13,591 nt of DNA from Candidatus Sericytochromatia bacterium (GTDB lineage Bacteria > Cyanobacteriota > Sericytochromatia > UBA7694). Below are positions 5,845 through 8,286 of the stretch, in pieces (position 1 is the stretch's first letter; each line of letters starts with the position of its first letter). A program made the position numbers and the translations under genes. Below the pieces are notes generated by a model that saw nothing but the letters and a program-made list of their open reading frames with translations, was not told the DNA's origin and did no database searches. The stretch spans positions 1 to 13,591 of the forward strand of contig JBFWRL010000156.1 of the NCBI GenBank assembly GCA_050248915.1. Reading direction: 5' to 3'.

Positions 5845-8286
5845 ATGGGAGAATCATCAAGCCGAGAACGGGATCTGGTTTTGGCCCCCAACGAATACGC
5901 CTTTATTTCTGATCAGACCAAAGGCAATATCAACGTCTATGTGGGTCCCTATAAAACCTCACTCGCCAATACAGATCAGCCTGTGATCTTTAATTCAGAG
6001 AGCAAGCGCTTTGAACGCTGTCTCTTGGAGCAGTCTATATCGGTGTTTGCCACGGCTCCCGAGGGCTGGTATCTGGTCATGAAAAATCCCCCCAAAGATG
6101 GCCATCAGCCTAAAAATGGAACCGTCAGTAATCTCACTGAACTCGAAATCGGCCACAAAGTAAATACCCCCGGCCCCATTTCATTTGCTCTTTGGCCTGG
6201 CCAAATGAGCCGGGTACTCAAAGGCCATCACCTGCGGTCCAATCAATACCTCACAGTGCGCGTTTATGATGAAGAATCTGCCCGCAAACACTGGAGCAAA
6301 GCTGTGATAAAGCCCCAAACGGGCAGCGAAGATGTCTCGTTGACCGAACAAGAAGTGCCCGATTTGACTTTGGGCAATTTGCTGGTGATCAAAGGGACGG
6401 AGATCTCCTTTTATATCCCCCCCACCGGCATGGAAGTTGTGCGCGATGAACAGGGGCAATATGTGCGCGAAGCCGTGACTTTGGAGCGCTTGGAGTATTG
6501 TATTTTGCTCGATGAAGACGGCAATAAACGCTTTATTCAGGGGCCAGATGTGGTCTTTCCCAAACCGACTGAAACTTTTGTCGAAAAAAAAGGCACACGC
6601 AAATTTCGTGCGATTGAACTCAACGAAAACAGTGGCCTCTTTGTCAAAGTGATCGCGCCATATGAAGAAAATGGGACTGCGTATAAAGTGGGTGATGAAC
6701 TGTTTATCACCGGCAAAGAGCAAATGATCTATTTCCCCCGCCCGGAACACGCGATTATTAAATACGGTGAGCAAGAAATTCACTATGCGGTAGCCATTCC
6801 GGCAGGTGAAGGCAGGTATGTGCTCGATCGCGAAAGTGGTCAGGTCTTTTTGCAAAAGGGTCCCAGCATGTTTTTACCTGACCCTCGCCGACAGGTGATT
6901 GTGCGCCGGGTCTTAGAGCCGAGCCAGGTTCAGCTCTGGTTTCCGGGCAATCAAGAGGCCCTCGAACACAATTTGCAACTCAAAGAACTCTTGCGCAAAG
7001 AAAAGGGCGAATACGCGACCGAATCCCAGCTATTACAGCTCAAAGCTGAAAAGCGCTCCGCCCCAGCACCAGCTCCCGGTGCCGCAGAGGGCTTTGCCGG
7101 GGACGATTTCTCACGCAAGACCAAATTTACCCCGCCGCGCACAATCACCTTGGACACCAAGTATGACGGGGCTGTGGCCATTGCGGTTTGGACAGGGTAT
7201 GCCATCTTGGTGGTCAGTAAAACCGGGGAGCGTCAGGTGATTGTGGGTCCCGGAACGCACCAATTGGGTTATGACGAAGCCCTCGAACCCATGACTCTTT
7301 CTACAGGCACCCCCAAAAGTGATAGCAAACCCCTCAAAACCGTTTATTTGCGGGTTTTACACAATAAGGTGTCTGACCAAGTTAAGGTCGAAACCGCCGA
7401 TTATTGTGAGGTCTTGGTGGATCTTTCTTATCGGGTCAATTTTGAGGGCAATCCCGCACTCTGGTTTAATGTCGAAAATTATGTCAAATTCCTGACCGAA
7501 CATATGCGCTCGATTCTGCGCAATGCGATCAAACAATTGGGCATTGAGACTTTTTATGCCGACGCCATCCGCATCATTCGCGACACCATTTTGGGTTTGG
7601 CCGAAGAGGGCAAACGTCCTGGCCGCTTTTTTACTGAAAATGGCATGAGTATCTACGATGTAGAAGTGCTCAATGTCTCGATTTCGGATGCTGAGATCGA
7701 AAAAATGCTGGTACAGGCCCAGCGCAAGGTCTTTGAACAGACGCTGGCGATTTCGTCGGAGCGTCGCCATTTAAATTTTGTGCGCGAAAACGAAGAGATC
7801 AAACGCCAAATTTCGCTGTCTCAGTCTGAAACCCGTCAAGCAGAACTCAAGTTACAAATTCAAGAATTGGTCACGGAGTTGGAGTTGCGGCTCTCACGTC
7901 TGAACACAGAGGTGCAGGCCGAACAGAGCAAACTTGAAGCCAAATGGGCCTCTCAAGAGATGTTGGGCAAGATCAACGGGGCCGAACTGGAACGCCAAAA
8001 AGCGACCGCCAATTTGGATATCGAGACCGCCAAACAGCGCCTTGATCAGCGCCTAGAAGCCCTACAGGCCGAAGTTCAGGCCATGGTGGCCAAAGCCGAA
8101 GCCATTTCACCCGACTTTATTGCCGCCCTGCAGGCCTTTGGCGACAAAGCCCTGGCCGAACGCATGGCCGAGTCCATGGCCCCACTTGCGATTCTCGGCG
8201 GTAAAAGTGTCGCCGAGGTGCTTTCGAGCCTGCTCAAAGGCACCAAGTTAGAAACGATCATGCTCAAGCAGCCGCCGCAAGTCTAG
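5845..8286 (+). CDS. Major vault protein (MVP) homologue. It has N-terminal vault repeats, an SPFH-like shoulder domain, a long cap-helix coiled coil and a cap-ring tail.
   Basis: The 813-aa protein aligns with vertebrate MVP along its length, recalled from memory. The first repeat [29 protein letters not shown] matches [28 protein letters not shown]. The shoulder is very similar: [27 protein letters not shown] / [47 protein letters not shown] / [20 protein letters not shown], and [36 protein letters not shown] / [39 protein letters not shown]. A Pro/Ala-rich loop ([19 protein letters not shown]) sits where vertebrate MVP has a disordered loop. The ~150-aa heptad-rich helix ([51 protein letters not shown]...) and the C-terminal [18 protein letters not shown]... 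match cap-helix and cap-ring. At ~800 aa it is far too long for a plain flotillin or band-7 protein. Confidence 0.85.
   Translation: [813 protein letters not shown]

Follow-up and report, generated by a model that had tools for sequence, protein, structure and literature searches.

Eukaryotic vaults are built from the major vault protein (MVP), which assembles into half-vaults of 39-fold symmetry and into 78-mer particles. The present work concerns an MVP-like open reading frame (ORF) of 813 amino acids (5845..8286, + strand, ATG start, stop codon included), encoded in a 13,591-nucleotide stretch of DNA, hereafter the window, from a Candidatus Sericytochromatia bacterium (GenBank assembly GCA_050248915.1, contig JBFWRL010000156.1, positions 1 to 13,591). 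Profile and fold comparisons indicate that the encoded protein is a soluble, cytoplasmic, full-length member of the MVP superfamily, and we propose, with a probability of roughly 0.6, that it forms a cytosolic, self-assembling vault-like cage.

Several prokaryotic and viral relatives of MVP have already been described. Daly et al. (2013; PMC3762200) reported bacterial homologues from Microscilla, Saprospira, Plesiocystis, Corallococcus, Flexibacter and Herpetosiphon, about 25% identical to the eukaryotic protein and predicted to fold and dock like MVP; a 2019 preprint by Sokolskyi (10.1101/872010) covered proteins of Enhygromyxa, Microscilla and Saprospira and reported a Band-7 signal, a 2023 preprint (10.1101/2023.11.10.566534) dealt with phage MVPs, and Asgard MVPs with five repeats have also been published (Nat Microbiol 2026, PMC12962969). 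The original prediction for this DNA, made from the letters of the sequence, took MVP to be essentially a eukaryotic protein and a prokaryotic vault-like nanocompartment to be new biology, a premise of novelty that these publications contradict; its further statement, that no bacterial MVP has been characterised structurally or functionally, agrees with the literature that could be searched, in which no experimental report of either kind was found. The ORF described here is a further member, in Sericytochromatia, of a bacterial and phage family known in silico since 2013. It probably belongs to the same family as the published proteins of Microscilla marina (A1ZGE7), Saprospira grandis (H6L4P8) and Enhygromyxa salina (A0A0C2D5V5), as judged through homologues in genomes of Enhygromyxa, Microscilla and Thermoflexibacter. 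Like the proteins of Daly et al., the window family is about 25% identical to eukaryotic MVP, and it carries the Band-7 signal reported in 2019, whereas its host lineage, Sericytochromatia, is new to that set. Asgard MVPs, set against the window protein by their description, are likewise prokaryotic, possess a cap helix, a shoulder and fewer repeats than vertebrate MVP, and are known by structure prediction only; they differ in having five repeats and in that some of them group with eukaryotic MVPs.

The literature places MVP in 'a few bacteria', but more than 6,900 clusters at 90% identity are present in the databases. Clustering at 50% identity gives 1,677 clusters that match the family profile with E <= 0.001, of which 773 do so with E <= 1e-30, and relatives are already labelled 'major vault protein' by the Joint Genome Institute (JGI). 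Full-length homologues about 61% identical to the window protein are present in Enhygromyxa salina DSM 15201 (L071), Microscilla sp. (L052) and Thermoflexibacter ruber (L063), and homologues at 60-67% identity occur in Riflebacteria, Cytophagales, Microscillaceae, Myxococcota, Desulfonema, Chloroflexota, Planctomycetota, Vulcanimicrobiota and others.

The relationship to MVP was established at the level of sequence profiles and of predicted fold. The Pfam family MVP_shoulder (PF11978) matches residues 506-615 with 94.4 bits (cut-off 25) and is present in 33 of 33 relatives, and Band_7 matches with 31.6 bits (cut-off 23.6). BLASTP against human MVP, whose sequence as used was identical to PDB 11dr_A over all 893 residues, returned 23% identity over 602 columns (E 1e-18). 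A single-sequence phmmer search against PDB sequences found nothing at E <= 0.01, so that a family profile was needed; with the profile of the 33 relatives, MVP chains were the sole matches (E 3e-25), and a second collinear stretch covered R6-R8 (profile 215-348 against rat MVP 287-421). When a family alignment of 125 sequences was used, HHalign paired residues 10-781 with human 7-828, from R1 through the cap-ring, over 676 columns (probability 99.9%, E 1.3e-31), the human tail beyond residue 828 having no aligned counterpart. The same 125-sequence alignment yielded an AlphaFold2 (AF2) model with a mean predicted local distance difference test (pLDDT) score of 84.9, exceeding 90 over the shoulder and most of residues 10-380 and 445-505; with a shallow alignment, whose 33 members share 62-94% identity with the query, the N-terminal half was unusable (mean pLDDT 50.6). 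In a Foldseek search of the PDB with this model, the first 12 matches were full-length vault chains (E 8e-35 to 3e-27), followed by murine R1-R7 crystal structures (3e-15) and, at about 1e-6, by SPFH cages. Since the vault matches stand ahead of the SPFH cages, the N-terminal half is vault-repeat-like independently of the SPFH shoulder, and an N-terminal array of vault-type beta repeats is present by both fold and profile-profile comparison. No model of PADLOC, PHROGs or NCBIfam matches the protein. No transmembrane segment or signal peptide was detected in it: the N-terminus is hydrophilic, and the maximum Kyte-Doolittle hydropathy over 19 residues (KD19), 1.46, falls in a beta strand of the R9-like repeat.

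As a separate observation, BFVD entry A0A3G5A4K1 of Harvfovirus sp., an 802-aa giant-virus 'prohibitin domain-containing protein', matches the AF2 model over its full length (Foldseek E 2.8e-12). It may represent an MVP-like protein among the nucleocytoplasmic large DNA viruses.

The domains of the window protein, mapped with human boundaries which we take to be those of Tanaka et al. 2009, are arranged as follows.

5872..6024, + strand: first beta repeat, R1 equivalent (residues 10-60; model pLDDT >90)
6037..6444, + strand: two beta repeats in place of vertebrate R2-R5, compressed, with a variable loop at 158-178 (residues 65-200; strand pattern of the model)
6463..6744, + strand: two repeats, R6-R7 equivalent (residues 207-300; hmmsearch, BLASTP, HHalign)
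6748..7164, + strand: R8-equivalent repeat, containing a helical insertion at 359-404 as well as a disordered loop (residues 302-440; model, with R8 at 315-424 by HHalign)
7057..7119, + strand: Pro/Ala-rich low-confidence loop (residues 405-425; pLDDT <50 at 409-425)
7177..7359, + strand: R9-equivalent repeat (residues 445-505; Pfam Vault_3)
7297..7317, + strand: keyhole-loop equivalent LSTGTPK (residues 485-491; alignment to human LSAGRPK)
7360..7689, + strand: shoulder with SPFH/Band-7 fold (residues 506-615; MVP_shoulder, Band_7)
7690..8097, + strand: single cap helix of 136 residues (residues 616-751; model, aligned to human 647-802 over 135 columns)
8098..8283, + strand: C-terminal helices, putative cap-ring equivalent (residues 752-813; pLDDT about 36-52)

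The original prediction of a full-length MVP homologue was borne out by these comparisons, and the domain order is collinear with that of vertebrate MVP, as seen in rat or human vault structures such as PDB 4V60, 9BW5 and 11DR: R1 through an R9-like repeat, an SPFH shoulder, a long cap helix and a putative cap-ring region. Its claim that the whole architecture is reproduced went too far, because the strand pattern and the HHalign map give about seven repeats and not the nine (R1-R9) of vertebrates, and the R2-R4 equivalent measures about 90 aa, roughly half of the 167 in human MVP; HHalign aligned only 21 of 55 columns in R2, 30 of 54 in R3 and 32 of 58 in R4, and the family has insertion hot spots after residues 160 and 166. 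In R1, where human R1 maps to residues 10-73, the family consensus reads DLVL.P.E.A...D.TKG...V.VGP.K.SL..TD.PV.F, and the predicted signature is shared only as P..Y..I.DQ......V.VGP(x)KT, with a shift of one residue. Shoulder blocks described as near-identical to vertebrate MVP proved to be short motifs (ETAD and RIIR..G) within a domain in which 30 of 109 residues are identical (28%); LS[TA]G.PK is a further shared motif. The cap helix, put at about 150 residues, has 136, as against 156 in the vertebrate protein. The expected Pro/Ala loop was recovered as a stretch at about 405-415 in the R8 equivalent, at a family insertion hot spot after residue 406. Other segments are uniform in length, the R9 equivalent by HHalign (425-505) being 81 aa long in 109 of the 125 family members and residues 752-800 of the tail 49 aa long in 101 of them.

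The cap helix provides signatures that bear on assembly. Its dominant hydrophobic period is 2.25, a value reached by 0 of 500 shuffles for both the family profile and the window protein; this period is an alias of 1.8 residues, or half a helical turn, and corresponds to hydrophobic stripes on two opposite faces. The same 2.25 peak characterises the human cap helix, from which the 39-helix barrel of the vault cap is built; there, 1 of 500 shuffles reaches it. Within the family, the helix measures 136 aa in 80 of the 125 members, and its length variants of 125, 147 and 129 aa (differences of +11, -11 or -7 residues) amount to whole numbers of helical turns. The R1 tip ranks among the better conserved parts of the protein. 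Periodicity, constancy of length and conservation of R1 would fit a lateral packing into a closed ring, which we infer from the sequences of the family. By analogy with vaults and all solved SPFH cages, many copies of the protein are proposed to associate laterally, with cap helices and shoulders closing into a ring or dome and the vault-type repeats building the thin wall of a barrel. Joined in pairs at the highly conserved R1 tip, such domes may yield a shortened vault-like shell around cytosolic cargo.

As to that cargo, two leads can be put forward tentatively, namely an invariant lysine in the keyhole loop and the RNA-repair and ADP-ribose genes found beside huge-phage homologues. In human MVP, the keyhole loop LSAGRPK lines a pocket for nicotinamide adenine dinucleotide (NAD+) and adenosine diphosphate (ADP) (PMC12280208). 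In the family, S486 and K491 of the equivalent LSTGTPK are conserved in 125 of 125 sequences, G488 in 120 and P490 in 121, so that human K506 (here K491) and G503/P505 are kept. Binding of NAD+/ADP by the window protein may be considered a lead, given this partial resemblance in sequence, and since the human NAD+ pocket is only partly conserved, no claim of nucleotide binding is made.

With regard to the phage relatives, 326 IMG/VR contigs, many of them 100-500 kb in size and AT-rich, encode full-length proteins 42-55% identical to the window protein, and one MVP-like gene is present in each of two published huge phages, LR756501 (735 kb) and LR756500 (462 kb). The phage genes often lie beside RNA-repair, PARP or Macro genes, whereas the window gene is chromosomal and stands alone. 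Huge-phage MVP-like genes, in contigs that include LR756500, are found within a few kb of RNA ligases (L162, L138, L125), and their neighbours include end-healing AAA_33 kinases with HD or Metallophos phosphoesterases, an RlaP nucleotidyltransferase, a DUF2828+vWA protein, PARP (L162, and L107 with WGR+PARP_reg+PARP) and Macro domains, often near tRNA arrays; the MVPs of those phage lineages are just 38-66% identical to each other. The neighbourhoods in question are the following.

L107:5286-6599, phage MVP neighbourhood with the WGR+PARP_reg+PARP protein
L125:4566-7897, phage MVP neighbourhood with an RNA ligase
L138:3071-4018, phage MVP neighbourhood with an RNA ligase
L143-L160 (e.g. L145:5842-7380), phage MVP neighbourhoods
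L162:2493-14435, phage MVP neighbourhood with an RNA ligase and PARP

By analogy, this phage neighbourhood resembles a module of RNA repair and ADP-ribose chemistry and echoes the composition of the human vault, which holds PARP4 and the NADase TEP1 inside and binds ADP-ribose in its shoulder; for the window gene it offers a hypothesis. The family might accordingly serve RNA repair and NAD+/ADP-ribose chemistry by acting as a scaffold or compartment, in the manner of an ancestral 'vault ribonucleoprotein (RNP)' whose partners in the window organism would be encoded elsewhere. Besides the phage genes and the vault contents, the invariance of K491 speaks for such a role, as does a precedent that 10.1101/312249 cites from Burroughs & Aravind 2016, in which RtcB is encoded beside both a Band-7 protein and an RNA resembling tRNA. 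On the other hand, neither the window nor any of the bacterial loci searched has one of these phage neighbour genes within 8 kb of its MVP gene, 51 bacterial loci yielded no tRNA-like gene beside it, and the window contains neither an Rfam match nor a tRNA. Phage synteny can persist through descent alone, and a link between DUF2828 and TROVE could not be demonstrated from sequence; we consider this explanation quite unlikely. A bolder proposal, speculative and in our opinion unlikely, is that the bacterial and phage proteins are true cytosolic vault-like cages working with NAD+/ADP-ribose and RNA-repair enzymes, and that the eukaryotic vault (MVP, PARP4, TEP1 and vault RNA) descended from a prokaryotic or phage RNA-conflict compartment.

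A number of observations weigh against the proposal of a vault-like cage. The Pfam check suggested alongside the original prediction gave a divided answer: beside the strong shoulder match, Vault PF01505 has no match in the protein and Vault_3 (PF17795) reaches 26.5 bits, below its cut-off of 28.8, although at E <= 0.1 Vault_3 is found in 33 of 33 relatives (best E 5.8e-10), as against PF01505 in just two of the 33. The cap-ring is aligned by HHalign over 26 columns (755-781) at low model confidence (pLDDT <55). Of the human pocket, D521 is replaced by a near-invariant Asn, and R511, W545, P565 and K573 are not kept. No neighbour gene conserved beyond close relatives, and no counterpart of vPARP/PARP4, TEP1 (TROVE) or vault RNA, was found in the window or in the approximately 70 bacterial loci in which the gene was placed (80 were fetched), where shared neighbours are lineage-specific housekeeping genes only (histidine kinases, ABC transporters, LepA, HemN, CorA). 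With about seven repeats and 23% identity, the symmetry number, size and closure of the rat or human vault are not transferable to this protein, and its oligomeric assembly is itself something that we infer.

To these points is added that the two-faced pattern of the cap helix would equally suit a membrane-capping SPFH cage. The protein may build one SPFH-type dome over a patch of the cytoplasmic membrane's inner face, as HflK/C, QmcA, flotillin and stomatin do, with the repeat region reaching the membrane or a membrane protein and no free two-halved vault. SPFH/Band-7 cages (HflK/C, QmcA-YbbJ, flotillin, prohibitin, stomatin, erlin) share with the window protein an SPFH domain that precedes a long, wall-forming helix, and all of them form closed rings or domes. 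However, they possess membrane anchors and no beta-repeat barrel, their structural match to the window protein extends over about 250 residues, and the N-terminal anchor (a transmembrane helix or hairpin) typical of SPFH membrane scaffolds is absent here, a soluble character that the protein shares with vertebrate MVP. A membrane-bound dome is regarded as unlikely, and the cytosolic vault-like cage is the reading that we consider more likely.

The gene itself is embedded in a bacterial chromosome and is equipped with bacterial expression signals, which are listed below.

5771..5799, + strand: sigma-70-type promoter, TTGACA, 17-nt spacer and TAAAAT (consensus scan, 11 of 12 positions matching)
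5832..5835, + strand: Shine-Dalgarno (SD) sequence GAGG, 9 nt upstream of the MVP-like ATG (read from the sequence)
8297..8335, + strand: intrinsic terminator, a 13-bp stem-loop (8297-8325) followed by the T-run TCATTTTTAA

The flanking genes are bacterial and encode a threonine ammonia-lyase (TIGR01127, 466 bits), an MMPL transporter, a DUF1963 protein, the lipobox lipoproteins LPLQAC and LPLTAC, an S8 peptidase and an NHL-repeat protein. Composition is like that of the neighbours, with a GC content at third codon positions (GC3) of 0.566 versus 0.49-0.63 and a correlation of relative synonymous codon usage (RSCU) with the other window genes of r = 0.89. The locus shows about 82% nucleotide identity and full synteny over approximately 12 kb with contigs of Candidatus Sericytochromatia metagenome-assembled genomes (MAGs), one of them 406 kb long; the MVP-like gene occupies the same position in three related MAGs, and DNA similarity to the Sericytochromatia relative L001 begins at 5770. 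The ratio of non-synonymous to synonymous substitution rates (dN/dS), determined against the orthologues in L001 and L002, is 0.028 for the MVP-like gene, equal to that of ilvA (0.030), compared with 0.05-0.19 for other genes of the locus and 0.017 for a 186-aa protein with cyclic-di-GMP-binding motifs. The MVP-like gene is under strong purifying selection and has been passed on vertically in the Candidatus Sericytochromatia lineage. A neighbour-joining tree lists the six Sericytochromatia sequences side by side; its bacterial sequences, apparently ordered by phylum as read from the leaf order, make up one clade among more diverse viral ones. Because the bacterial set was gathered with narrower peptide patterns, no conclusion on the direction of transfer is drawn.

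These data also bear on the possibility of eukaryotic contamination, of a chimeric assembly or of an ORF acquired from a eukaryote very recently, which comes to mind since MVP is best known from eukaryotes and since a eukaryote-to-bacterium transfer was considered for cyanobacterial MVPs by Daly et al. (2013; PMC3762200). An identity to human MVP of just 23%, the promoter, SD site and terminator, the codon usage, the conserved position and low dN/dS among the related MAGs, the many clusters that match the family profile and the single, apparently phylum-ordered bacterial clade all speak against it, and we regard it as refuted. The original prediction of a native bacterial gene, with each of its expression signals and its neighbour-like composition, is therefore upheld, and of the three outcomes that it had named as adverse (matches confined to SPFH proteins, a structure lacking repeats and cap, a chimera with eukaryotic DNA) none was found.

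Several features of the neighbouring genes deserve a brief description. The 186-aa protein (window 4440-5000, + strand) consists of tandem MshE-type cyclic-di-GMP-binding motifs (NCBIfam NF053729, three stretches, E 2e-27) and is 98% identical to its L002 orthologue, in keeping with the dN/dS given above. The LPLQAC lipoprotein (window 5056-5649, - strand; 197 aa) has a Pro/Ser/Thr-rich linker, a codon usage only weakly correlated with that elsewhere in the window (RSCU r = 0.34) and the fastest evolution in the locus, with 62% identity to its orthologues and a dN/dS of 0.17. On the other side of the MVP-like gene, two genes occupy window 8349-9551 (+ strand): the DUF1963 (YwqG-like) gene starts 63 nt past the MVP-like stop, beyond the terminator, and its stop at 9083 is abutted by the start, at 9084, of a 155-aa ORF of unassigned family; conservation of both is limited to Sericytochromatia relatives. 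The LPLTAC lipoprotein (window 9657-11126, + strand; 489 aa) contains three internal repeats of about 140 aa each, in which the blocks 'PLK..(x)EGEC...Y(T)RYE' and 'P.(D/G)(A/S)PQT.ECR' can be recognised by eye, and has no match in Pfam, NCBIfam or PADLOC.

In conclusion, the opportunity to test for a prokaryotic vault does not originate with this window, since 60%-identical homologues in cultured bacteria have been on record from 2013 onwards. What is added here is a confident full-length model with about seven repeats, helix-packing signatures common to the human cap helix, an account of the size of the family, and the strong constraint and vertical inheritance of the gene in Sericytochromatia, together with the RNA-repair, PARP and Macro neighbourhoods of the huge-phage homologues, which provide a concrete hypothesis. 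The function of the vault has been under discussion since 1986, and for this question a prokaryotic counterpart would offer a simple model.

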